In this document: positions 5,092 through 22,231 of the stretch, one piece after another
How the letters are laid out: each line of letters begins with the position of its first letter
Position numbering within the stretch: position 1 is the stretch's first letter
Assembly (NCBI GenBank): GCA_033764495.1
Contig: JANRIY010000050.1
Span: 8,617-72,616 of the forward strand
DNA length: 64,000 nucleotides
Source of the DNA: Sphingopyxis sp.
GTDB lineage: Bacteria; Pseudomonadota; Alphaproteobacteria; Sphingomonadales; Sphingomonadaceae
Direction of reading: 5' to 3'
Translations under genes and position numbers: made by a program
The notes under the pieces: model-generated
The model's input: the letters and a program-made list of their open reading frames with translations, nothing else
Databases searched by the model: none
What the model was told of the DNA's origin: nothing

Positions 5092-7737
5092 ATGTCATCC
5101 GCCCCCGCCTTGACCATCTCATCCGCCCCCGCCACCCCGATGATGGCGCAATATTGGGCGCTCAAGGCCGAAGCCCCCGATTGCCTGCTCTTCTATCGCA
5201 TGGGCGATTTCTTCGAGCTGTTCTTTGATGATGCGCGGGCCGCCGCCGCGACGCTTGATATCGCGCTCACATCGCGCGGTGAGCATGGCGGCGAAGCGGT
5301 GCCGATGTGCGGGGTGCCGGTGCATGCGGCGGAGGCCTATCTTGCGCGCCTGATCCGCGCCGGGCACCGCGTCGCCATCGCCGAACAGGTCGAAACCCCC
5401 GCCGAGGCGAAGGCGCGCGGCGGGTCGAAAGCGCTCGTCGCGCGCGCCATCGTGCGCTTTGTCACCGCGGGCACGCTGACCGAAGAGACATTGCTTGAGG
5501 GGCGCAGCGCCAACCGCCTCGCCGCACTGGCGAGCATTGCCGCGACCGGCGAAACCGCCATCGCCGCCGCCGATATTTCAACGGGGCGCTTCGAAGTAGT
5601 GCTCACCGATGCGGGCCGCGTCGAGGCCGAACTCGCGCGCCTCGCCCCCAGCGAAATACTGGTGGCGGAAGGGCAGGCCGTCCCCGCCCCGTTCGCCGCG
5701 CGCGCCATCGAACGGCCCGCATCCGACTTCGCCAGCGCTGCCGCGGCCAAGCGGCTGCAGGCGCGCTTCGGCGTCGCGACGCTCGACGGCTTTGGCGATT
5801 TCGCGCGCGCCGAACTTGCCGCAATGGGCGCGCTCGACGCCTATCTCGGCCATGTCGGGCGCGGCAGCGCGGTGTTTTTGCAGGCGCCCGTGCGCGCGGC
5901 GGCCGGCGGCGTCATGGCCATCGATGCCGCGACGCGCGACAGTCTGGAGCTGACCCGCACCGCCGACGGCCAGCGCGGCGGCAGCCTGCTCGCCGCCATC
6001 GACCGCACCGTGACCGCGGGCGGCGCGCGCCAGCTCGCTGACGATATCGCCGCGCCGCTCACCGATAGGGCCGCCATCACCGACCGGCTCGACCTCGTCG
6101 ACTGGTTCGCGCGCAATGCCTTGCTGCGCGCCGAGGTGCGCGATGCCCTGCGCGCGCTGCCCGACGCCGCGCGGGCGCTCGGGCGGCTGGTGGCAGGGCG
6201 CGGCAGCCCGCGCGATCTTGCCCAGCTGCGCGATGCGCTCGGCGGCGCGCGGCGGCTGCGCGAACGGCTCGGCGCCTTGGCGCAGCGCCCTGCATTGCTC
6301 GATGCCATCCTCCCAGCGCTCGACGGGCACGGTGCGCTTGTCGATGAACTCACCCGCGCGCTGGTGGAAAGTCCGCCGCTCGATGCGGCCCAAGGCGGCT
6401 ATATCGCCGAAGGTTACGACCACGCGCTCGACGCGCTGCGCCACACGGCGCGCGACGGGCGGCAGGCGATTGCCGCGCTCGAGGCCGATTACCGCGCGCG
6501 CACTGGCATCGCCGGGCTCAAAATCCGCCATAACGGCGTGCTCGGCTATCATGTCGAGGTGACGGCGAAGGCCGCCGATGCGCTGATGGCGCCCACATCG
6601 GGCTTCACGCACCGCCAGACGCTCGCCGGGGTGGTGCGCTTCAACGCGCCCGACCTCCACGAAGCCGCGCTGCGCGTGACGCAGGCCGGCGCGCACGCGC
6701 TGGCCGCCGAAGCGGCGCATCTGGAGGCGCTGACCGCGCTTGCCGTCGCCCGCCGCGAGGCCATTGCGCGCAGCTGCGATGCGCTCGCCCGCATCGATGT
6801 TGCCGCCGCGCACGCCGACCATGCCATGACCCACGGCTGGTGCCGCCCCGGGCTGACCGATGACAATGTGCTCGCCATCACCGGCGGTCGTCACCCCGTG
6901 GTCGAAGCGGCGCTGGCGGCGCGCAGCGAACAGTTCGTCCCCAACGATCTGGCTTTGTCGCCAAGCGACCGGCTGTGGCTGGTCACCGGCCCCAATATGG
7001 GCGGGAAATCGACCTTCCTGCGGCAAAATGCGCTGATCATTGTGCTCGCGCAGGCGGGGGCATTTGTGCCCGCGTCGGCGGCCACCATCGGCCTCACCGA
7101 CCGGCTGTTCAGCCGCGTCGGCGCCAGCGACAATCTGGCACGCGGACGCTCGACCTTCATGGTCGAAATGGTCGAAACCGCTGCGATCCTCGCGCAGGCG
7201 ACGCCGCGCAGTTTCGTGATTTTGGACGAAGTCGGTCGCGGCACGTCAACTTACGACGGCCTCGCGCTGGCCTGGGCGGTGGTCGAGGCGGTGCACGAGG
7301 TCAACCGCTGCCGCTGCCTGTTCGCGACCCATTATCACGAATTGACGCGCCTTGCCGAGACGCTGGACGCGCTCTCGCTCCACCATGTCCGCGCGCGCGA
7401 ATGGCAGGGCGATCTGGTGCTGCTCCACGAACTCGCCGATGGCCCCGCCGACCGCAGCTACGGCCTCGCCGTCGCGCGCCTCGCCGGGGTCGCCCCGCGC
7501 GTCGTCCAGCGCGCCGAAGCGGTGCTCGCCAAGCTCGAGGCCGGGCGCGCCGCCACCGGCGGGCTCGCAGCGGGGCTCGACGATCTGCCCCTCTTTGCCG
7601 CAACCGTCGCTGAGGCGCCCGCGCCACCAACCGACGCGCTGCGCGACGCGCTCGCGGATATTCAGCCCGACAGCCTGACCCCGCGCGACGCGCTGGAACT
7701 GCTCTATCGGCTTAAGGGTCTGGCAGACGGGGCATGA
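5092..7737 (+). CDS. mutS: DNA mismatch repair protein MutS
   Basis: ATG at 5092 (MSSAPALTISSAPATPMMAQYWALKAEAPDCLLFYRMGDFFELF). Walker A GPNMGGKST. Stop at 7735-7737. Confidence 0.95.
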   Translation: MSSAPALTISSAPATPMMAQYWALKAEAPDCLLFYRMGDFFELFFDDARAAAATLDIALTSRGEHGGEAVPMCGVPVHAAEAYLARLIRAGHRVAIAEQVETPAEAKARGGSKALVARAIVRFVTAGTLTEETLLEGRSANRLAALASIAATGETAIAAADISTGRFEVVLTDAGRVEAELARLAPSEILVAEGQAVPAPFAARAIERPASDFASAAAAKRLQARFGVATLDGFGDFARAELAAMGALDAYLGHVGRGSAVFLQAPVRAAAGGVMAIDAATRDSLELTRTADGQRGGSLLAAIDRTVTAGGARQLADDIAAPLTDRAAITDRLDLVDWFARNALLRAEVRDALRALPDAARALGRLVAGRGSPRDLAQLRDALGGARRLRERLGALAQRPALLDAILPALDGHGALVDELTRALVESPPLDAAQGGYIAEGYDHALDALRHTARDGRQAIAALEADYRARTGIAGLKIRHNGVLGYHVEVTAKAADALMAPTSGFTHRQTLAGVVRFNAPDLHEAALRVTQAGAHALAAEAAHLEALTALAVARREAIARSCDALARIDVAAAHADHAMTHGWCRPGLTDDNVLAITGGRHPVVEAALAARSEQFVPNDLALSPSDRLWLVTGPNMGGKSTFLRQNALIIVLAQAGAFVPASAATIGLTDRLFSRVGASDNLARGRSTFMVEMVETAAILAQATPRSFVILDEVGRGTSTYDGLALAWAVVEAVHEVNRCRCLFATHYHELTRLAETLDALSLHHVRAREWQGDLVLLHELADGPADRSYGLAVARLAGVAPRVVQRAEAVLAKLEAGRAATGGLAAGLDDLPLFAATVAEAPAPPTDALRDALADIQPDSLTPRDALELLYRLKGLADGA

Positions 7738-10490
7738 CCGACCGCTTCGCCAGCCTTGACGACCGCCGCGCCATCATCGACCGGCGCGCACTGGCCGATG
7801 CGCTCGACACAGCGATGGCGAATGCGCGGCACGGCAGCGCGCGGCGGCGCATTTTGGTGCTCATGCTCAAAGATGCGCTGGACGCGGGGCGGGCCGAGGT
7901 AGCGCGGCGGCTGGCCCTCCACCCTACCGCCGGACGCGCGGCGGCGCTGGCGCAAACCTTTCTGATCGACCAGATCATCCGGTTGGCGCACGATGTCGTG
8001 ACCGACCACCTCTATCCTTCGGGCAACAAATCATCGGGTGAACGCCTCGCATTGATCGCAGTCGGGGGTTATGGCCGCGCCGAGCTGTGCCCGCACAGCG
8101 ACGTCGACATCGGCTTCATCACCCCGTTCAAACAAACCAGCTGGACCGAACAGGTGATCGAGGCGATGCTCTACACCTTCTGGGATCTGGGGCTGAAGGT
8201 CGGCCATTCATCGCGCTCGGTTGACGAGATGATCCGCGCTGCGCGCGACGATCTGACCGTGCGTACCGCGCTTTTGGAAGCGCGCTTCATCTGGGGCGAT
8301 CGTGCGCTTTACGAAGCCGCCGCGGCGCGCTTTGCTGCCGAGGTGGTGGCGGGCAATGCCAAGGCGTTCGTCGCCGACAAGCTCGCCGAACGTGACGAGC
8401 GCCACGTCAAAATGGGCGATTCGCGCTATGTCGTCGAACCCAATGTGAAGGAAGGAAAAGGCGGCCTGCGCGATCTCCACACGCTGTTGTGGATCGGCAA
8501 ATTCATTCATCAGGTGCGCGCCGCCCCCGAACTGGTCGACGCCGGGCTGCTGACGGCGGGCGAATTGCGGCAATTTGCCCGCGCGGAAAATTTCCTGCTC
8601 GCGGTGCGCTGCCACCTTCACCTGATCACCGGGCGCACCGAGGACCGGCTGACGTTTGACGTCCAGCGCGAGATCGCCGAACGGATGCGCTTTGCCGCGC
8701 GGCCGGGCAAGAGCGCAGTCGAACGTTTCATGCAGCTATATTTCTTGCATGCCAAAGCGGTGGGCGACCTCACCGGAACATTCCTTGCGCACCTCGATGA
8801 CCAGCAGGCCGCGCGCGGTCGGCGATTCCTGCCGACGATGTTCCGCCGCCCTGCCAAACTCGGCAGCTTTGTGCTCGACCGCGGGCGGCTGGCGCTGCCT
8901 TCGGACAAACATTTTATCGAAGACCCGGTGCGCCTGCTCGAAATTTTTGCGCTCGCCGACAAGCACGGGCTGGAGGTCCATCCCACCGCGATGCGCCAGG
9001 CGCGCCACGATGCGCGGTTGATTGATCAGGCGGTGCGCCGCGATCCGCGCGCCAATGCGCTGTTTCTTGACGTACTGACGTCACCGCGTGACCCCGAAAC
9101 CGTGCTGCGCTGGATGAACGAAGCGGGGGTCTTCGGTCGTTTCATTCCCGATTTCGGCCGTGTCGTCGCGCAGATGCAGTTCGACATGTATCATCATTAC
9201 ACCGTCGATGAACACACTATCCGTGCCATCGGGCTGCTCGCGCGGATAGAGGCGGGCAAGCTTAAGGGCGATCATCCGCTGTCCAGCGTCATCATGGCGC
9301 AGATCCAATCGCGCCGCGTGCTGTACGTCGCGGTGCTGCTACACGACATCGCCAAGGGGCGCGGCGGCGACCATAGCGTGCTGGGGGCCGAACTCGCGCT
9401 CACCCTCTGTCCGCGCCTCGGCATGACGGCGGCAGAGACCGAAACCGTATCCTGGTTGGTGCGCTATCACCTGCTCATGTCGGCGACCGCCTTCAAGCGC
9501 GACCTCGCCGATTTCAAAACCATCCTGGATTTTGCGGGCGCGGTGCAATCGCCCGAACGGCTGCGCTTGCTGTTGGTGCTCACCGTGGTCGATATCCGCG
9601 CGGTCGGCCCGGGCGTGTGGAACGGCTGGAAGCGCCAATTGCTCAGCGAACTCTATGATGCCGCCGAAGAAGTGCTGCGCCTTGGCCACAAGCAGCGCGG
9701 GCGTGAGGCCCGCATCGCGGCCAAGAAAGAAGCGGCGGCGGAGCGGCTGGCGCTTGCTCCTAGCGCCTTTGACGCGCTCGCCCGGCGCTTGCCCGAAAGC
9801 TATTGGATCGCCGAATCGGTCGATGTAATCGCCGCCAACCTGCGTCACATGCTCGCCCATCCCGGCGCGGCACTCGCGGTCAGCGCCATCCCCGACGCCG
9901 ATCGCGGCGCGACCCTTGTGATGGTGCTCGCCGCCGACCATCCGGGGCTCTTCTACCGCATTGCGGGCGGCATCCATCTGGCCGGCGGCAACATCATCGA
10001 CGCACGCATCCACACCACGCGCGACGGCATGGCCCTCGACAATTTCCTGGTGCAGGATCCTTTGGGGCGGCCCTTCGCCGATGATCGCCAGATCGAACGG
10101 CTGTCGCGCGCGATCGACGATGCGCTCGCCAACCGCCAGAAATTGCTGCCCAAGCTCGCAGCCCGCCCCTTACCGCGCACCCGTGCCGAAACCTTTCGCA
10201 TCGCGCCCAATGTGCTGATCGACAACAAAGCGTCGAACCGGTTTACGGTGGTCGAGGTGAATGCACAGGACCGCCCGGCGCTGTTGAACCAGCTCGCCTA
10301 TGCGCTGTTCCAGTCGAAGGTCACCGTGCACAGCGCGCATGTCGCCACCTATGGCGAACGCGCGGTCGACGTCTTTTACGTCACCGACCTGCTCGGCGGC
10401 AAAATCGACAGCGCCGCACGCGTGCGGGCGCTGGAAAAGCGCTTGCTTGAGGCGGCTGCCGGCGAAGTGGCCGGCGCGGTCGCGGCCTAA
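7734..10490 (+). CDS. glnD: [protein-PII] uridylyltransferase/uridylyl-removing enzyme GlnD
   Basis: 918 aa with nucleotidyltransferase, HD (LLHDIAKG) and two C-terminal ACT-like regions. ATG at 7734 overlaps the mutS TGA (ATGA). Confidence 0.93.
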   Translation: MTDRFASLDDRRAIIDRRALADALDTAMANARHGSARRRILVLMLKDALDAGRAEVARRLALHPTAGRAAALAQTFLIDQIIRLAHDVVTDHLYPSGNKSSGERLALIAVGGYGRAELCPHSDVDIGFITPFKQTSWTEQVIEAMLYTFWDLGLKVGHSSRSVDEMIRAARDDLTVRTALLEARFIWGDRALYEAAAARFAAEVVAGNAKAFVADKLAERDERHVKMGDSRYVVEPNVKEGKGGLRDLHTLLWIGKFIHQVRAAPELVDAGLLTAGELRQFARAENFLLAVRCHLHLITGRTEDRLTFDVQREIAERMRFAARPGKSAVERFMQLYFLHAKAVGDLTGTFLAHLDDQQAARGRRFLPTMFRRPAKLGSFVLDRGRLALPSDKHFIEDPVRLLEIFALADKHGLEVHPTAMRQARHDARLIDQAVRRDPRANALFLDVLTSPRDPETVLRWMNEAGVFGRFIPDFGRVVAQMQFDMYHHYTVDEHTIRAIGLLARIEAGKLKGDHPLSSVIMAQIQSRRVLYVAVLLHDIAKGRGGDHSVLGAELALTLCPRLGMTAAETETVSWLVRYHLLMSATAFKRDLADFKTILDFAGAVQSPERLRLLLVLTVVDIRAVGPGVWNGWKRQLLSELYDAAEEVLRLGHKQRGREARIAAKKEAAAERLALAPSAFDALARRLPESYWIAESVDVIAANLRHMLAHPGAALAVSAIPDADRGATLVMVLAADHPGLFYRIAGGIHLAGGNIIDARIHTTRDGMALDNFLVQDPLGRPFADDRQIERLSRAIDDALANRQKLLPKLAARPLPRTRAETFRIAPNVLIDNKASNRFTVVEVNAQDRPALLNQLAYALFQSKVTVHSAHVATYGERAVDVFYVTDLLGGKIDSAARVRALEKRLLEAAAGEVAGAVAA

Positions 10491-12871
10491 CTGCGCAGCA
10501 CTGCCCCCAGCTTCGCCGCCGCTGCCACCACGGCGTCGCTGATGGCTTTGAGATCCGCATCGGTGAAGCTCTTATCGCCGGGCTGCAGCACGACCTCGAC
10601 CGCCAGACTGACCTGACCATCGGGCACACCCGCGCCGACAAAGCGGTCGAACAGCCGCGCCGCGACGATATGCGCCTTGTCCGCACCCTTGACCGCACGC
10701 ACCAGCTCGCCCGCCGCCAAAGTTTCGGGCGCGAGGAAGGCAAAGTCGCGGGTCACCGCCTGCAAGGCGGGCGGGGCGAAGGGCGCGCGCATGAAACCTG
10801 ACGCGCGCTTGGCCGGAATGGCGTCGAGATGAATCTCCGCGACCGCAACCGGCCCATCCAGATCGAACGCCTTGGCCGTCGCGGGGTGCAGCATGCCGAA
10901 CGCCGCAAGCACCGTCTTGGGCCCCAGCCGCAGCGTCGCCGACTGGCCGGGGTGATAGTGCGCGCCTGCTTCGCCCATGACCTGCAGATTGTCGGTCGGG
11001 GCGCCGGCTGCTGCCAGCAAAGCCAGCACTTCGGCCTTGGCGTCGAACGCATCGAAGCGCGCGGCTTTGCCGCTCGCCCAACCGCGCGGCATTTTTTCGC
11101 CGCCCAGTAACAGGCCCAGCGTCGGCCGTTCGATGCTGGTGCCGTCGGCGCTGCGAAAATAACGCCGCCCGATTTCAAACAGGCGGACACTGGGCGCGCC
11201 GCGATCCATATTGCGCTGCGCCGCCATCAGCAGCCCGGGCAACAGCGACGGCCGCATGACCTTCAAATCCTCGCTGATCGGATTGGCAAGCGTCCAGTCG
11301 CCCCCCCCGAACGCCGCCGCCGCATTTTCGGGCAGGAACGACCAGGTGATCGCCTCGTTCAGCCCGCGCGCCGCCGCCGTGCGCCGTACCCGCCGCTCGA
11401 CCTTCTGCATCGGTGTCGCGGTCGGCTTGGCGACCCCGTCTGCGCGGGGCAATGGGGCGCTGGCGATATTGTCGAAGCCGATGATCCGCGTCACTTCCTC
11501 GACCAGATCGGCAGGCCCATCGATGTCGCGCCGCCAACTGGGGACGGTGACTGTCCAGTCGGGTGCCACGGCAAAGCCAAGCGAAGCCAAGATGGCGGCC
11601 TGTTGCTCGGCGGGAACTTCAATCCCGCCCAGCCGCGCACAATGTGCCGGATCATAGCTCAGCGACCGCGCAGCGAGCGGGGGTTCGCCGGCGCGCACCA
11701 CCTCACTCGCTGTCCCGCCGCAAATATCGATGACCAGCGCCGTAATAATCTCGACCGCATCGTCCAGAAACGCCGGATCCACCCCGCGCTCGAACCGCGT
11801 GCGCGCATCGCTGGTCAGCCCCAGCGCCTGCCCCGTCCGCGCAATATGCTCGGGGGTGAAATAGGCGACCTCCAGCAGCACATCGGTGGTGGTCTCGCTG
11901 CACCCCGAATGTTCGCCGCCCATGATGCCCGCGATGTCATGGACACCACTGTCGTCGGCGATCACGGTCATCGCCGACGTCAGCGCATATTGCTTGCCAT
12001 TCAGCGCGGTGACGGTTTCGCCGTCCTTTGCGCGCCGCGCCACGACCGCACCGGTCAGCTTGGGCAGGTCATAGGCATGGCTCGGCCGTCCATGGTCAAG
12101 CATCACATAGTTGGTGATATCGACCAGCGCCGAAATCGGTCGCTGCCCGGCGCTCTTCAGCCGCGCCTGCATCCAGGCGGGCGACGCGCCATTGGTCACG
12201 CCTTTGATAACGCGGCCATAGAAAGCGGGGCAGCCTGCAGGATCGTCGGTGCGAATTTCGGTCGGGCAGGGATAGCTCGCTGCCACCGACGGCACTTCCA
12301 AGGGCCTCAGCGTCCCCAGCCCGGCTGCCGCCAGATCGCGCGCGATGCCGCGCACGCCCATGCAATCCTGCCGGTTGGGGGTCACCGACACATCGATCAC
12401 CGGATCGTTCAAATCGGCATAGTCGCAGAACGCCATGCCCACCGGCGCATCAGCGGGCAATTCGATGATGCCGTCATGGTCATCGCCCAGCTCCAGCTCG
12501 CGCGACGAACACATCATGCCGTTCGATTCGACGCCGCGGATCGCGGCCTTGCGCAGCACCATGCCGTTCGCCGGCACCACCGCGCCCTCGCGCCCGAACA
12601 CCCCGACCAGGCCGGCGCGCGCATTGGGCGCGCCGCACACGACCTGCAGCGGCACGCCGTCGCCACGGTCGACCGACAGCACTTGCAGCTTGTCGGCCTG
12701 CGGATGCCGCTCGGCGGTCAGCACGCGCGCAACGGTGAACCCCGCTAGGCGCTCGGCGGGGTTCTCGATGCCCTCAACCTCCAGCCCGATGCGGTTCAGC
12801 GTGTCCGCAACCGCCTGAATGTCGGCGTCGGTATCAAGGTGGCTCTTCAACCACGAAAGGGAGAATTTCAT
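10487..12871 (-). CDS. pheT: phenylalanine--tRNA ligase beta subunit
   Basis: 794 aa, [14 protein letters not shown]..., with tRNA-binding, B3/4, B5 and FDX-ACB regions. Its start overlaps the pheS stop. Confidence 0.96.
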
Positions 12872-14627: not shown

Positions 14628-14760
14628 TTCGGTCTCCTTGTTCTGGGACAATCTCGACCGGCCCTGGCAGCCCTTGTAGCCAGGCAGGTCATCACGCGAT
14701 CGTCGGCGAAGCGGGGCCGTTAGCCAAGCGTGCGCCAAAATGCAAGCGATTCGGCGCTTT

Positions 14761-14802
14761 GTTACTATTTCAAGCTCGGCATGTTACCATTTCAAGCTCG
14801 GC
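14761..14802. repeat. tandem direct repeat, 2 copies of a 20-mer with 22-bp period
   Basis: GTTACTATTTCAAGCTCGGC (14761-14780) and GTTACCATTTCAAGCTCGGC (14783-14802) agree at 19/20. TCGGCGCTT flanks both sides (14751-14759 and 14798-14806). Locally AT-rich, in the divergent rpmI/DUF4129 intergenic region. Confidence 0.85.
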
Positions 14803-14869
14803 GCTTGCTTACGCTGACGCCTGCGTTAGGACTGGAGGCAATGCCACCGTCCTCCCCGCGCGCTTTTGC

Positions 14870-15622
14870 ATGACCGCTAAGGCTCCCACGCCTGTCAAAG
14901 GGCCGCCGCCGCAACAGCTGCCCAATGGTCCTGCGCGCGCGGAAGTGGACAGCGGCGCGCTGGCCGATCCTTGGCTCGCCGATGCCGATCTGGTCGATCC
15001 GGCCTATGCCGAAACCATGGCCAAGGAAGGTTTGCAGACCAGCCTTCCCGAAGCGCCCCCGCCACCCCCGACGCCTCGGTGGCTGGAGGACTTTTTTGAC
15101 TGGCTGGGCGACGTCTTCAATGCCATCGGCAAGTTTTTCGAAGCGACCGGCGTCGGCTTGACCTATGTGCTGTGGGGTCTCGGGGCGCTGCTCATCCTGT
15201 TCATTGCCTATCGCCTGTTCCCGGGCTTTGCCGACTGGATTAACGCGCTGCTCGGGCGCAAGGTCGAGGAAGCCGAACCCGAGCAAGGCTTGGCCGAAGC
15301 CAGCGCCGCGCGCGCGCGGCTTGCCGATGCCGACGCGCTCGCCGCCGAAGGGCGCTACGCCGAAGCCGTGCATCTGCTCCTCTATCGCAGCGTCGATGAC
15401 ATCGCCGCGCGCCGCCCTGGCCTCGTCAAACCCGCCATCACGTCGCGCGATCTTGCGGGGTCGCGCGACCTGCCCGGTATCGCGCGCGCCGCTTTTGCCC
15501 GCATCGCGCGCGCGGTTGAAGTCAGCCTGTTCGGCGGCCAGCCGGTTGATGCCAATGTGTGGGGCGAATGCCGCGCGGCCTATTCGGAATTGACCGTTCC
15601 AAAGGCATGGGCCACGGCATGA
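14870..15622 (+). CDS. DUF4129 domain membrane protein (first gene of the MoxR module)
   Basis: ATG at 14870. Pro-rich N-terminus (PPPPPTP). One TM segment (GLTYVLWGLGALLILFIAYRLF). The C-terminus (AAEGRYAEAVHLLLYRSVDDIA...SRDL...FARIARAVEVSLFGGQPV) fits the DUF4129 pattern. Confidence 0.55.
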   Translation: MTAKAPTPVKGPPPQQLPNGPARAEVDSGALADPWLADADLVDPAYAETMAKEGLQTSLPEAPPPPPTPRWLEDFFDWLGDVFNAIGKFFEATGVGLTYVLWGLGALLILFIAYRLFPGFADWINALLGRKVEEAEPEQGLAEASAARARLADADALAAEGRYAEAVHLLLYRSVDDIAARRPGLVKPAITSRDLAGSRDLPGIARAAFARIARAVEVSLFGGQPVDANVWGECRAAYSELTVPKAWATA

Positions 15623-16875
15623 GCGCCGATACCGCCCGCACCCCGTTCGACCCGCGCGTGATCGGCGCGGTGATCGTCATCGGCGTCATCGGCTTCATCG
15701 CCATGTGGGCATTGATGGCGCTCGGTCCGCAATTGTCGGCGGGCAATAATGCGCAGGGTCATGCGCTGTCGAAGGGCGTGGCGGGTTATGCCGGGATCGT
15801 CGATTATGCTGAGCGCGCCGACATTTGGGTCGATGTGCGCCGCGAAGTGGTGAAGGCAACCCCGCTGGGCGATGATGAGGGCAGCACGCTGCTGGTCCTC
15901 ACCCCTGACCAGAGCAGCGAGCCTGACGAGATCGAAGCGCTGATCAAGGCACATGGGCGCGAACCGGTGCTGATCGTGCTGCCCAAATGGCGATCCATCC
16001 CGCATCCGCAGCGCAAGGGATGGACAGGCATCGCCTTTCCGGTCACCGCGCGCCAAGATTTGTTGGACAAGGCGGACATCGGCGGCGTTGGCAAGCCGCG
16101 CATCGCACCGCTAGCCGCCACGGTGCAAACCAGCTTTGCGGGGCCAAGCAATCGCCGCGACGCCGTGACACTAGCGGCCGGGAACTGGCAACGTGTGGCA
16201 CCCGGGCCGCGCAACGCCAGCCTGCTCGCGGTGCCGGGCAGCGACGATGCATTGCTGGTGCGCAGCGCCAACCGCCGCGTCTATGTCCTCGCCGACCCCG
16301 ACCTCATCAACAATTTCGCTTTCGCCAGCCGCGAACGTGCGCGCACCGCGCTCGCCGTGCTTGATATGGTGGCAGAGGACAGCGACGCCGGTGGGATCGC
16401 CTTCGACGTCACGCTCAATGGCCTCGGCGGCGGCAGCGGCTTTCTGCGGCTCGCGTTTGTGCCGCCTTTCATCGGCATCACCGCCTGCCTGATTGCGGCG
16501 GGCCTGTTTGCGCTATGGCAGGCGGCGGCGCGTTTTGGCCCCGCGCGCGTGGCTGCGCGTGCCATCCCCATTTCCAAGCGCGCGCTCATTGAAAGCAGCG
16601 CCGAACTGGTCGCACAGACGCGGCGTGAGGCCGATGGTGCCGACGCCTGGCTGCGTGGTCAGCGCGAGGCGCTGGGGCGCGCGCTGCACGCGCCGCCGGG
16701 GCTCGAAGGTGCCGCGCTCGATGACTGGATCGACCGCCGCCGGCCGGCCAGGGTTGGGGGCGATGGCTTTGCCGCGCTCGCCCGCCGCCTCCCGCTCGCC
16801 CGTAATAGCAACGAATTATTGGGGCTCACCCGCGCCCTGCACACCATCAGAAAGGATTTGCTGCGTGAGCATTGA
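15619..16875 (+). CDS. DUF4350 domain membrane protein
   Basis: ATG at 15619 overlaps the upstream TGA (ATGA). N-terminal TM (VIGAVIVIGVIGFIAMWALMAL), a large central domain, a second TM (FVPPFIGITACLIAAGLFALW) and a cytoplasmic tail. Confidence 0.5.
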   Translation: MSADTARTPFDPRVIGAVIVIGVIGFIAMWALMALGPQLSAGNNAQGHALSKGVAGYAGIVDYAERADIWVDVRREVVKATPLGDDEGSTLLVLTPDQSSEPDEIEALIKAHGREPVLIVLPKWRSIPHPQRKGWTGIAFPVTARQDLLDKADIGGVGKPRIAPLAATVQTSFAGPSNRRDAVTLAAGNWQRVAPGPRNASLLAVPGSDDALLVRSANRRVYVLADPDLINNFAFASRERARTALAVLDMVAEDSDAGGIAFDVTLNGLGGGSGFLRLAFVPPFIGITACLIAAGLFALWQAAARFGPARVAARAIPISKRALIESSAELVAQTRREADGADAWLRGQREALGRALHAPPGLEGAALDDWIDRRRPARVGGDGFAALARRLPLARNSNELLGLTRALHTIRKDLLREH

Positions 16876-17830
16876 TAACATCGACGGCGTCGCCAATCTC
16901 GCGGGCCAGCTGCGCGCCGAAGTGGGCAAAGCCGTGGTCGGACAGGACGCCCTTGTTGATATGGTCAGCATTGCGCTGCTCGCGGGCGGCCATTGCCTGC
17001 TCGAAGGGCCACCGGGTACCGCCAAGACGCTGCTCGCCCAATGTTTCGCCCGCGCCGCAGGGCTGGGTTTCGGGCGCATCCAGTTCACGCCCGATCTGAT
17101 GCCTGGTGACATTTTGGGGTCGAACCTGTTCAACTTCCAGACCTCGACCTTCACCCTCACCAAGGGGCCGATTTTCACCGAGCTGCTGCTCGCCGACGAA
17201 ATCAACCGCACCCCGCCCAAGACGCAGGCCGCGCTTTTGGAAGCGATGCAGGAACGCCGCGTCACCATCAACGGCGAACCGCACAGTCTCAGCCCGCGCT
17301 TCACCGTGCTGGCAACGCAAAACCCGATCGAGCAGCAGGGCGTCTATCCACTGCCCGAGGCGCAGCTCGACCGCTTCCTGTTCAAACTCATCGTCGGCTA
17401 TCCCGATGCCGCCGAAGAACGGCGGATCGTCGCCGACCATGGCGGACGCTTCAAGGCGCCGGCGGCGGGCGATTTCGGGGTGACACAGATTGCCGACGCC
17501 GCGACCATCGCGGCGGCGATTGATGTCGTCGCCCAAGTGCGGCTGGCCGACGAGATTGTCGACTATATCGTGCGCCTCGTCCGCGCGACGCGCGCCACCG
17601 CCGATCTCGAATGCGGGGCCAGCCCTCGCGCCGCCAGCCTGCTTGCGCGCGCTGCCTGCGCCAGCGCGGCTATCGACGGGCGCGACTATACCATCCCCGA
17701 TGATGTCAAACGCCTCGCCGCCAATGTACTGCGCCACCGTTTGATTCTGTCTCCCGCCGCCGAAATCGACGGGCGCAATGTCGAAACGGTGGTCGAGGAA
17801 CTGGTGAACGCGACCGAGGTGCCGCGTTGA
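16865..17830 (+). CDS. MoxR-family AAA+ ATPase
   Basis: GTG at 16865 (VSIDNIDG...), 11 nt inside the upstream gene. Walker A GPPGTAKT, Walker B LLADEINR. About 321 aa, typical of MoxR. The ORF-track N-terminus from 16493 is rejected as out of family. Confidence 0.9.
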   Translation: MSIDNIDGVANLAGQLRAEVGKAVVGQDALVDMVSIALLAGGHCLLEGPPGTAKTLLAQCFARAAGLGFGRIQFTPDLMPGDILGSNLFNFQTSTFTLTKGPIFTELLLADEINRTPPKTQAALLEAMQERRVTINGEPHSLSPRFTVLATQNPIEQQGVYPLPEAQLDRFLFKLIVGYPDAAEERRIVADHGGRFKAPAAGDFGVTQIADAATIAAAIDVVAQVRLADEIVDYIVRLVRATRATADLECGASPRAASLLARAACASAAIDGRDYTIPDDVKRLAANVLRHRLILSPAAEIDGRNVETVVEELVNATEVPR

Positions 17831-19164
17831 TTCTGCCCACGCCGCTCACGATTCTGTTGCTGCTCACCGGCGCGCCGGTGGCGCTGGGGCTGGGCCTGAT
17901 CCGCCCCGACTTGTGGCTCTTGTCGCTGGTGTGGATTGGGGTCATCGCGGCGCTGATGCTGGTCGATGCGCTGGTCGCGGGCGATCTGCGCCGGATCGCG
18001 GTTGATCTGCGCGCGCCGCGCAGCGTGGGCATCGGCGACCCCTTCAACCTGCTGGTGCGCCTCGACGCGCCGGGCGCGCGCTGGAAACCGGCAAAGATTG
18101 ACATTGCCATGGCGGTCGATGCGCGGCTCGATGCCGGGGGACGGATTGCGGGCATCGGTTTCCCCGCCGATGCGCCCGGTGGGGCGGGGCTGACGCTGAT
18201 CAAGAATTTCACCCTCGCCGCTGCGCGGCGCGGCACCGCGCGCATCGACGGGCTGTGGCTGCGCTGGCGCGGACCCTTGGGCCTCGCCATCCTCCAGCGC
18301 CGCTATGCCGAGCACCGCGAGATCGCCGTTGTGCCCAGCTTGCGCAGCGTGCGCGAAGACGGCCTCAAGCTGTTTCGCCGCGATGCCCAATTCGGCCTGC
18401 GTCAACAAATGCTGGTGGGCGAAGGCAGCGAGTATGAAGCGCTGGGCGAATATCAGCCCGGCATGGACCGGCGCAGCATCGATTGGACCGCCTCGGCGCG
18501 CCATGTGAAACTTTTGGCGAAAGAATATCGCATCGAACGCGACAACCGGCTGGTGCTGGCCATCGACGCCGGCCGCACGATGAGCGAGCCGGTTGACGGC
18601 ATGCCGCGCGTCGACCGCGCCGTTTCGGCGGCGCTGCTGCTCGCCTTGGTTGCCTTGAAGATGGAGGACCGGGTCAGCCTGTTCCACTTCGCTGCCAAGC
18701 CTGGCGGATCGACGCCGGTGCTGGCGCACAGCAGCGATTTTCCGCTGCTCCAGGCGGCTGCCGCACGCATCGATTATGCGCATGAGGAAAGCAATTTCAC
18801 GCTGGCGCTGGCAACCCTTGGCGCGCAGCTCAACCGCCGTTCGCTGATTGTCCTCTTCACCGAATTCACCGATCCGACCAGCGCCGAGCTGATGATCCGC
18901 GCCGCCGGACGGCTGGTGAAGCAACACCGCCTGCTGTTCGTGGTGCTCAAGGACAGCGAGTTGGAAGCGGTTGAACGGATGGAGCCAACGGAGCCCGCCG
19001 ATCTGGTGCGCACCAATGTCGCTGCCGCGCTGCTGCGCGACCGCCGTATTGTCATCGCGCGGCTGCAACGCATGGGCGTCGATGTGGTCGAAGTGGCGCA
19101 CGACCGCGTGTCGAGCGGTGTGCTCGATGCCTGGATGGCGATCAAAAAAGCCGGGAGTCTCTGA
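17827..19164 (+). CDS. DUF58 (VWA-like) domain membrane protein, MoxR partner
   Basis: TTG at 17827 overlaps the MoxR TGA (TTGA). Two N-terminal TM segments. Contains the signature YQPGMDRRSIDWTASARHVKLLAKEYRIERDNRLVLAIDAGRTM. Confidence 0.75.
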   Translation: MILPTPLTILLLLTGAPVALGLGLIRPDLWLLSLVWIGVIAALMLVDALVAGDLRRIAVDLRAPRSVGIGDPFNLLVRLDAPGARWKPAKIDIAMAVDARLDAGGRIAGIGFPADAPGGAGLTLIKNFTLAAARRGTARIDGLWLRWRGPLGLAILQRRYAEHREIAVVPSLRSVREDGLKLFRRDAQFGLRQQMLVGEGSEYEALGEYQPGMDRRSIDWTASARHVKLLAKEYRIERDNRLVLAIDAGRTMSEPVDGMPRVDRAVSAALLLALVALKMEDRVSLFHFAAKPGGSTPVLAHSSDFPLLQAAAARIDYAHEESNFTLALATLGAQLNRRSLIVLFTEFTDPTSAELMIRAAGRLVKQHRLLFVVLKDSELEAVERMEPTEPADLVRTNVAAALLRDRRIVIARLQRMGVDVVEVAHDRVSSGVLDAWMAIKKAGSL

Positions 19165-20183
19165 TGCCTGCCGTGCAAGCCCCCGCCTTTTCCGCCAGCC
19201 GCTTCCGCGCCGAGCGCGAGGCCGACTGGATCATTTTCGACCAATTGCTCACCCGGCTGGAAAAAGGGTCGGCATCGTCCTTGTCCACCGACGAGCTGCT
19301 GCGCCTGCCCGTGTTATACCGCGCGACACTTTCGTCACTTTCCATCGCGCGCGCCACCAGCCTTGATCGCGCGCTCAATGACCATCTGGAATCGCTCGCG
19401 ATGCGTGGCTATTTCCTGCTCTACGGCGTGCGCGAAAAGCGCAGCGCGCGGCTCCTGCGATTCTTTGCCCACGACTGGCCCGCCGCCGTGCGCGCGGTTT
19501 GGAAGGAGACACTGGTGATCGCGCTGGTGCTCTTGCTTGGCATCGCGACCAGCTGGTCCTTGACCTCCAGCGACCCGCAATGGTTCTTCCAGTTCGTTCC
19601 CGAAAATCTGGCGGGCGGGCGCACGCCCGAAGCGAGCGCCGAATATCTGCGCTCGACCATCGGTCACGGCAAAGCGCTGGTCGAAGATGGCGAAAGCAGC
19701 GGCATGGCTGTCTTTGCCTCCTATCTGTTCCAGCACAACAGCCGCATCGGCATTATGTCTTTTGCGCTGGGATTTGCCTTTGGCGTGCCGACATTGCTGC
19801 TGATTTTTTACAATGGCCTGTCGTTGGGACCGATGCTGGCGGTGTTCGCCGACAAGGGGCTGGGGGTCGATTTTGGCGGCTGGCTGGCCATCCACGGCAC
19901 GACTGAATTGTTCGCCATCATCCTTGCGGGCGCGGCGGGGCTCAAGATCGGGACGACGATGGTCTTTCCCGGCGAGATGGACCGGCTGACCGCACTGTCG
20001 CGCGCCGGACGCACGGCAGGCAAAGTGATGGTCGGGGTCATCATCATGATGTTGTGTGCGGGTCTGCTCGAAGGCTTTGCGCGCCAGCTGATCACCGACA
20101 CGGTGCTGCGCTACAGCATCGGCGGCACGCTGCTACTCGGCTGGCTTGCCTTTTACTACACGCCGCGGCGGACAGCGGCATGA
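19164..20183 (+). CDS. SpoIIM-like (stage II sporulation protein M family) integral membrane protein
   Basis: ATG at 19164 shares one nt with the upstream TGA (TGATG). Cytoplasmic N-domain followed by about 5-6 TM segments. The motifs FQHNSRIG...FYNGLSLG...HGTTELFAIILAGAAG fit the family. Confidence 0.6.
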   Translation: MPAVQAPAFSASRFRAEREADWIIFDQLLTRLEKGSASSLSTDELLRLPVLYRATLSSLSIARATSLDRALNDHLESLAMRGYFLLYGVREKRSARLLRFFAHDWPAAVRAVWKETLVIALVLLLGIATSWSLTSSDPQWFFQFVPENLAGGRTPEASAEYLRSTIGHGKALVEDGESSGMAVFASYLFQHNSRIGIMSFALGFAFGVPTLLLIFYNGLSLGPMLAVFADKGLGVDFGGWLAIHGTTELFAIILAGAAGLKIGTTMVFPGEMDRLTALSRAGRTAGKVMVGVIIMMLCAGLLEGFARQLITDTVLRYSIGGTLLLGWLAFYYTPRRTAA

Positions 20184-21055
20184 CTCCCGAAGCCACTGCG
20201 CAGGCGGCCGCCATCCAGAACAAGCGCGACAAGCGCCGCCAGTTCGTCACCCCCGAAGGCGTCGATCTGGAACTGGCGATTGCCAGCTCGGGGCTGCGCT
20301 TTGCTGCGCTGGTAATCGACCTGACATTGCTGATTCTGATCCTCATCCTTTTCACCCTGCTCGCCATCTGGATTGGCTTTGGCGGCGGGGCGGACGCTGC
20401 GGCCACCATCTGGCTGCTAGGCTTTTTCCTGCTGCGCACCTTCTGGTTTATCGGCTTTGAACTCGGCAAACGCGCTGCAACGCCGGGCAAGCGTATTGCG
20501 GGCATCCGCGTCGTCGCGCGCGACGGTGGGCGCTTGACGGCGGACGCCGTGATCGCGCGCAACCTGATCCGCGAACTGGAAATCTTCCTGCCGTTCACTT
20601 TTCTCGGCGCTGGCGCGGCCGAGGATATGGTGGGCTGGGGCACCAGCTTGGCGGGCGCGGCGTGGACGCTGACCTTGGGCTTCTTCCTGCTGTTCAACCG
20701 CGACCGGATGCGCATGGGCGATCTGATCGCGGGCACCTGGGTGGTTCAGGCGGGGCGAGCGCGGCTGGCCCGCGATCTGGCCACGGCGAGCGCCGCTGAT
20801 GAAGCGCTGCGCTTCACCGACGCCGAACTTGCTGTTTATGGCGAATTTGAACTGCAGGAACTGGAACGCGTCCTGCGCACCAACGAATCGCGCGTGGTTG
20901 CACAGGTCGCCGACACCATTCGCGCCAAAATCGGGCGCATGCGCACCGAGGATGATGCCATTTTTCTCGAAGCCTATTACCGTCAATTGCGCACGCGGCT
21001 GGAACGGGGAATGCTTTTCGGCAAACGCCGCGCCAACAAATTCGCCAAGGAATGA
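20180..21055 (+). CDS. RDD family membrane protein with a C-terminal soluble domain
   Basis: ATG at 20180 overlaps the upstream TGA (ATGA). GLRFAALVIDLTLLILI... and PGKRIAGIRVVARDGGRLT fit the RDD pattern. About 110 aa of helical tail. Confidence 0.65.
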   Translation: MTPEATAQAAAIQNKRDKRRQFVTPEGVDLELAIASSGLRFAALVIDLTLLILILILFTLLAIWIGFGGGADAAATIWLLGFFLLRTFWFIGFELGKRAATPGKRIAGIRVVARDGGRLTADAVIARNLIRELEIFLPFTFLGAGAAEDMVGWGTSLAGAAWTLTLGFFLLFNRDRMRMGDLIAGTWVVQAGRARLARDLATASAADEALRFTDAELAVYGEFELQELERVLRTNESRVVAQVADTIRAKIGRMRTEDDAIFLEAYYRQLRTRLERGMLFGKRRANKFAKE

Positions 21056-21059
21056 GCTT

Positions 21060-21737
21060 ATGTCTGTAGCCGATGCCCTACACTCCCGCCGTTCGGTGCG
21101 CGCATTCCGCCCCGATCCCGTTGATCCAGCAATTCTTCGCGATGCCTTGGCGGCGGCGCAGCGCGCACCGTCGGGCGGCAACCTTCAACCCTGGCGCGCC
21201 ATCGTGCTTACCGGCCAGCCGTGGGAGCGGCTCAAGGAAGCGGTCGCCGCGCGCGTCGCGATGGGGGCCGAGGGGCAGCAGATGGAATATTCCATCTACC
21301 CCGAAATCCTGCCCGATCCCTGGAAGGCGCGCCGCTATGGTGTGGGCGAGGCGCTCTATGGCGCGCTTGGGATTCCACGCGAAAACAAGATGGGCCGGAT
21401 GCTGCAATTTGCAGAAAATTTCCGCGGCTTCGGCGCGCCGGTGATGGTGTTTCTCTATACCCCGCGCACTATGGGGCCGCCGCAATGGTCCGACATGGGG
21501 ATGTGGCTGCAATCGCTGATGCTGCTGCTGACCGAAGCGGGCCTCGGCACCTGCGCGCAGGAATGCTGGGCGGTTTATGGCGAAACCATCCGGAACGAAC
21601 TCGGGATCGCCGACGACCAGATCCTTTTCTGCGGCCTCGCCATCGGCCACACCGATATCGACAATCCGGTCAATAATTGGTCCGTGCCGCGCGCGCCGCT
21701 CGATGAGGTGATAGAATGGCGCGGGTTCGAAGGATGA
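21060..21737 (+). CDS. nitroreductase family protein
   Basis: ATG at 21060, 4 nt after the RDD stop. HSRRSVRAF...AAQRAPSGGNLQPW is a classic nitroreductase N-terminus. Confidence 0.8.
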   Translation: MSVADALHSRRSVRAFRPDPVDPAILRDALAAAQRAPSGGNLQPWRAIVLTGQPWERLKEAVAARVAMGAEGQQMEYSIYPEILPDPWKARRYGVGEALYGALGIPRENKMGRMLQFAENFRGFGAPVMVFLYTPRTMGPPQWSDMGMWLQSLMLLLTEAGLGTCAQECWAVYGETIRNELGIADDQILFCGLAIGHTDIDNPVNNWSVPRAPLDEVIEWRGFEG

Positions 21738-22231
21738 AACGGCGGATCGCGGCCGGGCTGCTTGTCGCCATGCTGGCCGGTTGCGTTGCAGCGCCCAAGC
21801 CGGCTGCCCCGCCGCCCCGGCCGCCAGTGGTTGTCGCGCCGCCGCCTGCGCCCGTGCTGCCCCCGCCGCCAGTGCAGCCGTGGGACGAACTGCCGGTCAC
21901 CGAAGGCGGCTGGCAACTGGCTGCAGACGGCCGCGCTGCTCGCTTCGTGGATGACGGCGGCGTTGAACGCGCGGCGATCGTCTGCGCGGCTCCGGGGCGC
22001 ATCATCCGGATCGGTCTGAACGGAGAGCGGGCCATGCGGCTGGGCATTTCAACGAGCAGCGAGCTGCGCGAACTCATGCTCGCTGATGGCTCCGCCGACT
22101 TGCCTGTGGGCGATCCGATCCTCGACGCCATCGCCTTTAGTCGTGGCCGTTTTGCGCTCCGCGCCTCGCAATTGCTTGTGCTGCCGGTGCAGGCCGAAAT
22201 CGGCCGCGTGATAGAGGATTGCCGCGGTTAG
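21734..22231 (+). CDS. hypothetical lipoprotein
   Basis: ATG at 21734 overlaps the nitroreductase TGA (ATGA). Lipobox LAGC. Pro-rich linker. No family recognised. Confidence 0.5.
   Translation: MKRRIAAGLLVAMLAGCVAAPKPAAPPPRPPVVVAPPPAPVLPPPPVQPWDELPVTEGGWQLAADGRAARFVDDGGVERAAIVCAAPGRIIRIGLNGERAMRLGISTSSELRELMLADGSADLPVGDPILDAIAFSRGRFALRASQLLVLPVQAEIGRVIEDCRG

Follow-up and report, generated by a model that had tools for sequence, protein, structure and literature searches.

A conserved six-gene operon of Sphingopyxis sp. combines a MoxR ATPase with five membrane proteins in a candidate envelope module

Introduction

What does a MoxR-family AAA+ ATPase act upon when it and its adaptor are encoded in the midst of a fixed set of membrane proteins? 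In the usual view, a MoxR-VWA pair serves one enzyme as its chaperone, and in RavA-ViaA, NorQ-NorD, CbbQ-CbbO and the Bacteroides Bat operon the gene of a MoxR-family AAA+ ATPase is accompanied by that of a VWA-type adaptor. The question is raised here by a 64,000-nucleotide (nt) stretch of DNA from Sphingopyxis sp., which we refer to as the window. Six genes on its + strand, g1 to g6 (14870-21055), bring together proteins of the DUF4129, DUF4350, MoxR, DUF58, SpoIIM and RDD families, so that a MoxR-DUF58 pair is locked to four dedicated membrane proteins, or to five where a frequent seventh partner is present.

Parts of this arrangement have been noticed before. An archaeal secretion or membrane-remodelling complex composed of DUF4350, MoxR and vWA proteins has been predicted, and bacterial SpoIIM homologues were found to adjoin a vWA protein and a COG0714 ATPase (Makarova, Galperin, Koonin 2015, PMC5898192). 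An initial annotation of the locus had stated that the cluster has no assigned function. Full-text literature searches agreed with this statement, returning no paper with both DUF4129 and DUF4350 and none that gives the cluster a function, but the sub-associations were already on record in 2015 (PMC5898192). A paper on AopN that was retrieved for DUF4129 concerns a weak KEGG motif and was set aside as irrelevant. The individual families, the logic of the MoxR-VWA pair and the sub-associations are therefore already known; the complete six-family (often seven-family) module, its breadth, the fusions of SpoIIM and RDD domains and the pattern of DUF4129 occurrence are new, in that they are undescribed in the searchable literature.

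Here, we describe a computational analysis of this gene cluster and of its relatives. We present evidence that the six genes are a real and widely conserved operon and that the SpoIIM-like and RDD proteins probably form one complex, and we weigh what the module as a whole may do.

Results

Six overlapping genes encode a MoxR ATPase and five membrane proteins

Direct reading of the window reveals six + strand open reading frames (ORFs), each open to one stop and each overlapping the next. The first, g1 (14870-15622; 250 residues; DUF4129), meets g2 (15619-16875; 418 residues; DUF4350) in an ATGA at 15619-15622. The GTG start of g3 (16865-17830; 321 residues; MoxR AAA+) is at 16865, 11 nt inside g2, whose stop is at 16875, and g3 in turn shares a 4-nt overlap, TTGA at 17827-17830, with g4 (17827-19164; 445 residues; DUF58, VWA-type). 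A TGATG at 19162-19166 joins g4 to g5 (19164-20183; 339 residues; SpoIIM-like), and an ATGA at 20180-20183 joins g5 to g6 (20180-21055; 291 residues; RDD). The six same-strand genes and all five start/stop overlaps are exactly as the initial annotation had described them. Gene callers draw identical junctions in relatives such as Sphingopyxis terrae, purine runs resembling Shine-Dalgarno sequences are recognisable 5' of g3, g4 and g5, and the closest named homologues are those of Sphingopyxis. The overlaps suggest that translation of g1 to g6 is coupled. We conclude that g1-g6 is a real six-gene operon encoding a MoxR ATPase and five membrane proteins.

Families were assigned by Pfam scores relative to the gathering cut-offs and topology by a hydropathy scan; cytoplasmic or periplasmic sidedness was deduced from the positive-inside rule together with the cytoplasmic location of MoxR. 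All six family assignments that had been made from the letters alone pass the gathering thresholds, DUF4129 marginally, and the scan agrees with the topology proposed at the same time: a single-pass g1, a two-pass g2, a soluble g3, a transmembrane (TM) hairpin in g4, a polytopic g5 and, in g6, an RDD domain with a tail. NCBIfam offers no specific family for five of the six proteins, and a PDB sequence search with g2, g4, g5 and g6 returned nothing meaningful.

The arrangement is conserved throughout the sampled Alphaproteobacteria and in distant phyla

With the SpoIIM-like protein as its seed, a pattern scan across the species genomes of GTDB yielded 80 alphaproteobacterial loci from Sphingomonadales, Caulobacterales, Maricaulales, Micropepsales and Hyphomicrobiales. 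Wherever there was enough flank to judge, the six families lay on one strand (62/62 species loci), and gene order by ORF start was identical in 58 of these 62. The six-family arrangement is thus far beyond chance, and every alphaproteobacterial species sampled carries the module as a fixed, single-copy feature.

The cross-phylum evidence is limited to a few long contigs and plasmid or chromid records. Pseudomonas sp. CCM 7891 carries the genes in the order RDD-SpoIIM-DUF4129-DUF4350-MoxR-DUF58, every family being named by precomputed Pfam matches, and Catenovulum has the same permuted order; two metagenome-assembled genomes (MAGs), from Planctomyces and Eisenbacteria, retain the alphaproteobacterial order. 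The RDD gene of Nocardia and Nonomuraea is divergent from the SpoIIM-like gene and adjoins MoxR-DUF58, with DUF4350 or DUF4129 upstream, and in Prevotella an RDD and a SpoIIM gene are followed by two unassigned ORFs and then by DUF4350, MoxR and DUF58 genes, so that five of the six families are detectable. By a published annotation table (PMC8191103), the mycobacterial Rv3689-Rv3695 set is the same cluster, the DUF4350, MoxR, DUF58, SpoIIM and RDD genes listed in the Mycobacterium chelonae RNA-seq table corresponding to Rv3691-Rv3695. The presence of the neighbourhood in distant phyla, which the initial annotation had put forward, is hereby shown for Actinomycetota (Nocardia, Nonomuraea and mycobacteria) and for Bacteroidota (Prevotella, five of six families), and its conservation beyond close relatives extends to Gammaproteobacteria, Planctomycetota and Eisenbacteria. 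An exhaustive phmmer search with the SpoIIM-like protein returned 3611 cluster representatives at E <= 0.001, and among the names on the matches to its profile are those of Myxococcota, Planctomycetes and many Gammaproteobacteria. In the lineages compared, the module has no conserved gene for a soluble enzyme beside it.

A further membrane protein gene frequently stands beside the six. A polytopic gene resembling UPF0259, DUF7847 or GPDPase_memb was found to adjoin the module in 8 of the first 14 loci other than the window (L002, L003, L008, L009 and L011-L014), sometimes as two or three tandem copies, and in 30/62 of the alphaproteobacterial loci. Its product is likely a seventh component; no homologue was detected anywhere in the window. 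On chromids or plasmids of Paracoccus and Rhizobium, a DUF805 membrane gene (3254-3694 of L004 and 3212-3658 of L005) lies immediately upstream of the DUF4129-like gene, in the slot that the UPF0259-like gene occupies elsewhere.

The SpoIIM-like and RDD proteins probably form one complex

The SpoIIM match of g5 is strong (111.5 bits against a cut-off of 26.9). An AlphaFold2 (AF2) model of the protein, with a predicted local distance difference test score (pLDDT) of 93.1 and a predicted template modelling score (pTM) of 0.82, shows a four-helix N-terminal domain followed by six long TM helices. The N-terminal domain corresponds to Pfam DUF8413 (PF28475) in precomputed annotation and, from the topology, would be cytoplasmic. 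Within the TM helices, residues N192, N217, H244, E248, R274 and E303 are invariant among 11 loci from several phyla. A Foldseek search of the PDB with the g5 model returned no fold match with E <= 0.001. The SpoIIM-like protein of Bernardetia (8992-10845 of its locus) is unusually built, with 617 residues, of which 314 form a C-terminal extension that has no Pfam match.

The partner protein g6 (RDD, 65.4 bits) consists of the RDD TM helices and a helical C-terminal tail of ~100 residues. The signature residues R40, D47 and D181 are invariant in 11 orthologues, as are E94, G103-K104, R127 and R178.

SpoIIM and RDD domains also occur in single polypeptides. Five proteins carry them in the order SpoIIM-RDD and are only 40-46% identical to one another, about ten carry the reverse order, RDD-SpoIIM, and each order is found in a locus that holds the whole module (L011 and L014). 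Frameshift artefacts would hardly yield fusions that are so divergent and that come in two orders, and these proteins argue for a physical complex of g5 with g6. From this sequence evidence, the SpoIIM-like and RDD proteins probably form one complex. A single case of a DUF58-SpoIIM fusion was also seen.

An intact MoxR ATPase is paired with a DUF58 protein that has a degenerate metal site

The ATPase g3 matches AAA_3 at 203 bits (cut-off 27) and AAA_lid_2 at 75.9 bits (cut-off 22.7), and the hydropathy scan finds no TM segment in it, which marks it as soluble. The motifs GPPGTAKT (Walker A) and LLADEINR (Walker B), both of which the initial annotation had pointed out, are conserved in 10 orthologues, together with ATQNP, LPEAQLDRF and an intact arginine-finger region. 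It is the sole module protein with a solved relative recognisable by sequence, the MoxR structure PDB 2r44 (6.6e-70). In the Eisenbacteria MAG the MoxR gene (5765-6651 of its locus) is called as two pieces, of 173 and 122 residues, which indicates a frameshift or assembly error in that copy.

The companion protein g4 matches DUF58 at 69.9 bits (cut-off 23.4), and VWA_2 remains below threshold (23.8 against 27). Its N-terminal TM hairpin (residues 7-25 and 32-50) places the large domain on the same membrane side as the N-terminus, and we take this to be the cytoplasmic side, that of MoxR. The canonical DxSxS of the metal ion-dependent adhesion site (MIDAS) is absent; D247-A-G-R-T stands in its place, and all 10 module orthologues have D-x-G-x-x. 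Asp47, which lies inside the second TM segment, is invariant in all 10 orthologues compared. A mere anchor in the membrane would not usually keep such a residue, which suggests that it makes a specific contact within the membrane.

DUF4129 recurs after the last TM segment of proteins encoded with MoxR and DUF58

The DUF4129 match of g1 is marginal (25.4 bits against 24.8), but the assignment is supported by orthologues in the same slot that match the family in five other loci (L008, L010, L011, L014 and L015), the Pseudomonas protein reaching 36.9 bits. An acidic, proline-rich N-terminal region precedes the single TM segment of g1 (residues 95-113), and the C-terminal DUF4129 domain (171-238) is predicted to be cytoplasmic. 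DUF4129 follows shortly after the last TM segment not only in g1 but also in its 509-residue Pseudomonas homologue, in the TgpA protein of Ralstonia and in a 734-residue haloarchaeal protein. We regard DUF4129 in this position as a cytoplasmic-side mark that recurs in membrane proteins accompanying MoxR-DUF58. No Transglut_core or TgpA_N match was found by Pfam in any of g1-g6.

The DUF4350 assignment of g2 (37.7 bits, cut-off 30.4) is accompanied by a match of 104 bits in the Nonomuraea orthologue. Two TM segments (14-32 and 278-296) flank the alpha/beta DUF4350 domain (51-248), which is predicted to be periplasmic, and the arginine-rich C-terminal 122 residues are predicted to be cytoplasmic. 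Similarity of DUF4350 to GldG and a flavodoxin-like fold have been reported from HHpred (Makarova et al. 2015, PMC5898192); across 13 orthologues from several phyla, the domain has no conserved Cys/His/Glu triad. In Nocardia farcinica (3965-5830 of L002) the DUF4129 and DUF4350 signals share one stop-to-stop ORF directly upstream of MoxR, which may reflect a fusion or may stem artefactually from the high GC content of the sequence.

The component list drawn up at the outset was accordingly right in its six families; what it did not contain were the fusions of SpoIIM with RDD, the seventh partner that is often present and the connection of DUF4129 to TgpA operons.

Flanking genes and the upstream region

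Upstream, the cluster is divergent from rpmI-rplT-pheS-pheT. The intergenic region between g1 and rpmI, which is on the - strand, spans 14631-14869 and is presumed to hold the promoter of the module. A sigma-70 consensus scan found no promoter upstream of g1, and a promoter and terminator scan gave nothing above shuffled expectation. The region contains a tandem 21-nt motif, TGTTACYATTTCAAGCTCGGC, in two copies at 14760-14780 and 14782-14802 (spacing 22 nt), ~70-110 nt upstream of the g1 start; none would be expected by chance. This repeat is absent from all 97 related loci and has no Rfam match, and Rfam returned only a chance-level match for the upstream region.

Downstream lie a nitroreductase-family gene, then two small ORFs and then gyrB. 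The nitroreductase gene, g7 (21060-21737, + strand; Pfam Nitroreductase, 102 bits), starts 4 nt after g6 and may be co-transcribed with the module here. It is followed by a gene for a putative lipoprotein, proline-rich and 171 residues long, the two together spanning 21060-22231 (+ strand). This pair is found 3' of the module only in Sphingopyxis-type loci (11/47), the nitroreductase being present also in S. terrae, and no nitroreductase gene lies beside the module in the other lineages examined. The two genes thus appear to be a lineage-specific extension of the operon, and g7 is not part of the conserved module. The nitroreductase was considered as a client enzyme and rejected, its linkage being confined to Sphingopyxis.

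Discussion

How might six such proteins act together? We give about an even chance to the reading that they build one inner-membrane complex, driven or matured by the MoxR AAA+ ATPase, that serves envelope or membrane maintenance. The conserved gene set, the intact ATPase motifs, the fusions of g5 and g6 domains and the recurrence of DUF4129 with MoxR-DUF58 argue for a single complex. From the gene set, motifs, fusions and topology we infer the following mechanism. The SpoIIM-like and RDD proteins would form a polytopic heterodimeric core enclosing a buried cluster of invariant polar residues. The DUF58 adaptor, tethered by its N-terminal TM hairpin, would recruit a cytoplasmic MoxR hexamer, and the adaptor-ATPase pair could then engage the cytoplasmic helical domains of its partners, namely the DUF4129 domain of g1, the C-terminal tail of g2, the DUF8413 domain of g5 and the tail of g6. 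By hydrolysing ATP, the motor would put the complex together or drive it into another conformation, and this would alter the sole sizeable periplasmic element, the non-catalytic, GldG-like DUF4350 domain, together with the intramembrane polar site. The physiological role is likely to lie in remodelling or assembly where wall and membrane are growing. A role in envelope maintenance is likely by analogy with SpoIIM, with TgpA and with a pull-down in Mycobacterium tuberculosis, and maturation of a metalloenzyme is less likely. In that pull-down, the divisome-associated protein Rv0954 co-purified Rv3694c and Rv3695 with spectral counts of 10 and 9, and PbpA and LamA were also recovered; we regard this as weak but suggestive evidence. 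The term "envelope machine", which the initial annotation had applied, is likewise something we infer.

Several observations weigh against this reading, which for Sphingopyxis itself is built on sequence and structural models. The AF2 model of a SpoIIM-RDD fusion reached a pLDDT of 83 and a pTM of only 0.62, which leaves the interface of g5 with g6 a putative one. The degenerate MIDAS, common to all orthologues, means that the DUF58 adaptor may not act like those of canonical MoxR-VWA pairs. A divergent RDD gene adjoins the SpoIIM-like gene in Bernardetia with no MoxR or DUF58 gene within 9 kb, the one exception seen, and this pair implies that the core can exist with no motor encoded nearby. 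The cross-phylum sample is small and was picked via the SpoIIM-like protein, which biases it to loci with that gene. Although the M. chelonae DUF4350-to-RDD genes are all strongly co-downregulated, the response spans a contiguous block that includes glpFK (PMC8191103), and the co-regulation may be a regional effect rather than the mark of a shared regulon. Finally, a pDM4 insertion was tolerated in Pseudomonas aeruginosa PA2875, the first gene of the tgpA operon, and not in tgpA. If PA2875 encodes a MoxR protein, the ATPase can be dispensable for the core function of its partner.

The invariant charged and polar residues of the membrane core could be read in another way, with the SpoIIM-like and RDD proteins as a transporter or channel for ions or small solutes, such as a cation/proton antiporter, and the other four proteins as its assembly or gating factors. 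A Halobacillus protein of the RDD family has been reported to act as a Na+(Li+,K+)/H+ antiporter, its activity requiring conserved Arg and Asp residues, the Arg/Asp/Asp signature of g6 is invariant, and the TM helices of g5 and the second TM segment of the DUF58 protein (D47) bear further invariant polar or charged residues. We nevertheless think this unlikely: deletion or overexpression of the RDD protein SppI left the salt and alkaline tolerance of Bacillus subtilis unchanged, SppI being a protease regulator, and the models have no fold similarity to any solved transporter. Secondary transporters are not known normally to need a dedicated AAA+/VWA pair plus two bitopic partners. The predominance of membrane proteins, and the trio of DUF4350, MoxR and DUF58 that the module has in common with archaeal clusters, would equally suit a system devoted to protein secretion or surface assembly that would correspond in bacteria to the archaeal one, all the more as DUF4350 resembles GldG of the ABC (ATP-binding cassette) system associated with gliding and type IX secretion (HHpred, PMC5898192). 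However, beside the bacterial module there is no conserved secreted substrate, no surface-layer (S-layer) or immunoglobulin (Ig)-like protein and no outer-membrane component; there is no evident pore-forming element, and the lineages that have the module include diderm as well as mycolate or monoderm-type ones. We therefore judge a secretion role quite unlikely.

An ordinary maturation chaperone, one that loads metal or a cofactor into a specific enzyme and to which the four other membrane proteins are incidental, seems to us improbable. The MoxR-plus-VWA logic is well established for NorQD, CbbQO and CoxDEF, and in the window a nitroreductase gene follows g6 by 4 nt, but this link is restricted to Sphingopyxis-type loci and no other enzyme is conserved beside the module, which disfavours the idea. 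Moreover, the four membrane partners are present in 62/62 alphaproteobacterial loci and across phyla, and hence are not incidental, and the MIDAS that would mediate metal-dependent substrate binding is degenerate. The least credible of the explanations considered, one we would call highly improbable, is a role in anti-phage defence or conflict, after the MoxR-vWA type of system that Kaur et al. (2020) described. Although g3 also matches Pfam bpMoxR (40.8 bits), there was no significant PADLOC match (the best, 0.0012, falls in a generic AAA region), and Pfam detected no beta-propeller or effector domain in the module proteins. The housekeeping context (pheST, rplT, rpmI and gyrB) and the fixed, single-copy presence of the module in every sampled alphaproteobacterial species, rather than in a variable island, likewise disfavour defence.

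The reading as one MoxR-driven envelope complex can be extended, and here we are tentative, giving the extension clearly less than an even chance. The module would then be an undescribed and very widespread ATP-powered membrane machine, in which a four-family set (DUF4129, DUF4350, MoxR and DUF58) is shared with archaea, to which bacteria add the SpoIIM-like/RDD heterodimer, and in which the cytoplasmic AAA+ motor, by passing force or a change of conformation through the membrane, would act on the envelope as cells grow or divide, M. tuberculosis with its Rv3689-Rv3695 among them. Judging from the models, the heterodimer may have a fold with no solved counterpart; a Foldseek search of the PDB with the SpoIIM-RDD fusion model gave no match with E <= 0.001.

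The module is well defined, widely conserved and experimentally tractable, and overturns no current ideas. The set is conserved from Alphaproteobacteria to Actinomycetota and Bacteroidota and is present in pathogens (mycobacteria, Pseudomonas and Prevotella). Solving its function would give roles to six or seven "DUF"-type families at once, would explain the SpoIIM and RDD proteins that have no part in sporulation and would throw light on the repeated appearance of DUF4129 in systems built on MoxR-DUF58, that of the essential TgpA among them. Concrete, testable handles are offered by the SpoIIM-RDD fusions, by the residues within the membrane that are invariant and by the map of the topology.

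Comparison with known systems places the module between several of them. The MoxR-DUF58-TgpA operon of Ralstonia resembles it in having a MoxR gene, a DUF58 gene and, directly after these, the gene of a membrane protein (TgpA) with a C-terminal DUF4129 after its last TM segment. The P. aeruginosa tgpA gene, an essential one, shares a transcript with PA2875-PA2874, and the transglutaminase domain of TgpA is periplasmic. We take PA2875 to be the MoxR gene and PA2874 the DUF58 gene; the Ralstonia equivalent was checked here. Unlike TgpA, g1 has neither TgpA_N nor a transglutaminase core, and TgpA operons, unlike the module, have no DUF4350, SpoIIM-like or RDD genes.

The archaeal arCOG01314 system, itself only a prediction, likewise has a membrane-anchored DUF4350 protein, a COG0714 MoxR and a DUF58-type vWA protein in one neighbourhood. 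A Halorussus megaplasmid (5475-13519 of L097) encodes DUF4350, MoxR and DUF58 proteins together with the haloarchaeal protein of 734 residues, whose DUF4129 match, C-terminal to its last TM segment, is below threshold. Haloarchaeal MoxR proteins are the next-best plasmid-database matches to g3 after its true orthologues (46-47% identity). The archaeal sets come with S-layer or Ig-like membrane proteins (arCOG02884 and relatives) and, unlike the module, have no SpoIIM-like/RDD pair; in the cluster, Pfam profiles detected neither a pfam07760-like protein nor an Ig-like one. Archaeal DUF4350 proteins are described as having a signal peptide together with one C-terminal TM segment, whereas g2 has two TM segments and a cytoplasmic tail. 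From the Bat operon and the characterised MoxR-VWA pairs the module differs in that no enzyme client can be identified for it and proteins of the BatA/BatB-type VWA or tetratricopeptide repeat (TPR) kind are missing, in its degenerate MIDAS and in its four dedicated membrane partners.

In B. subtilis, SpoIIM is a polytopic member of the SpoIID-SpoIIM-SpoIIP engulfment complex that scaffolds wall hydrolases and other envelope proteins, and g5 shares its Pfam SpoIIM domain. Unlike the sporulation protein, g5 belongs to a non-sporulating alphaproteobacterium, carries the extra DUF8413 domain and, the Bernardetia pair apart, is always paired with RDD and MoxR-DUF58 in the loci compared; its cluster has no SpoIID or SpoIIP genes, and neither domain was found among the cluster genes or neighbours in the window or in S. 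terrae. The B. subtilis RDD protein SppI binds and inhibits SppA, a membrane protease encoded next to it. The partner of g6 is SpoIIM-like rather than an SppA protease, and Pfam finds no protease domain in the module. Like SppI, however, g6 is an RDD membrane protein with a C-terminal domain and a membrane-protein partner encoded adjacent to it, the complex being known for SppI-SppA and predicted for g6.

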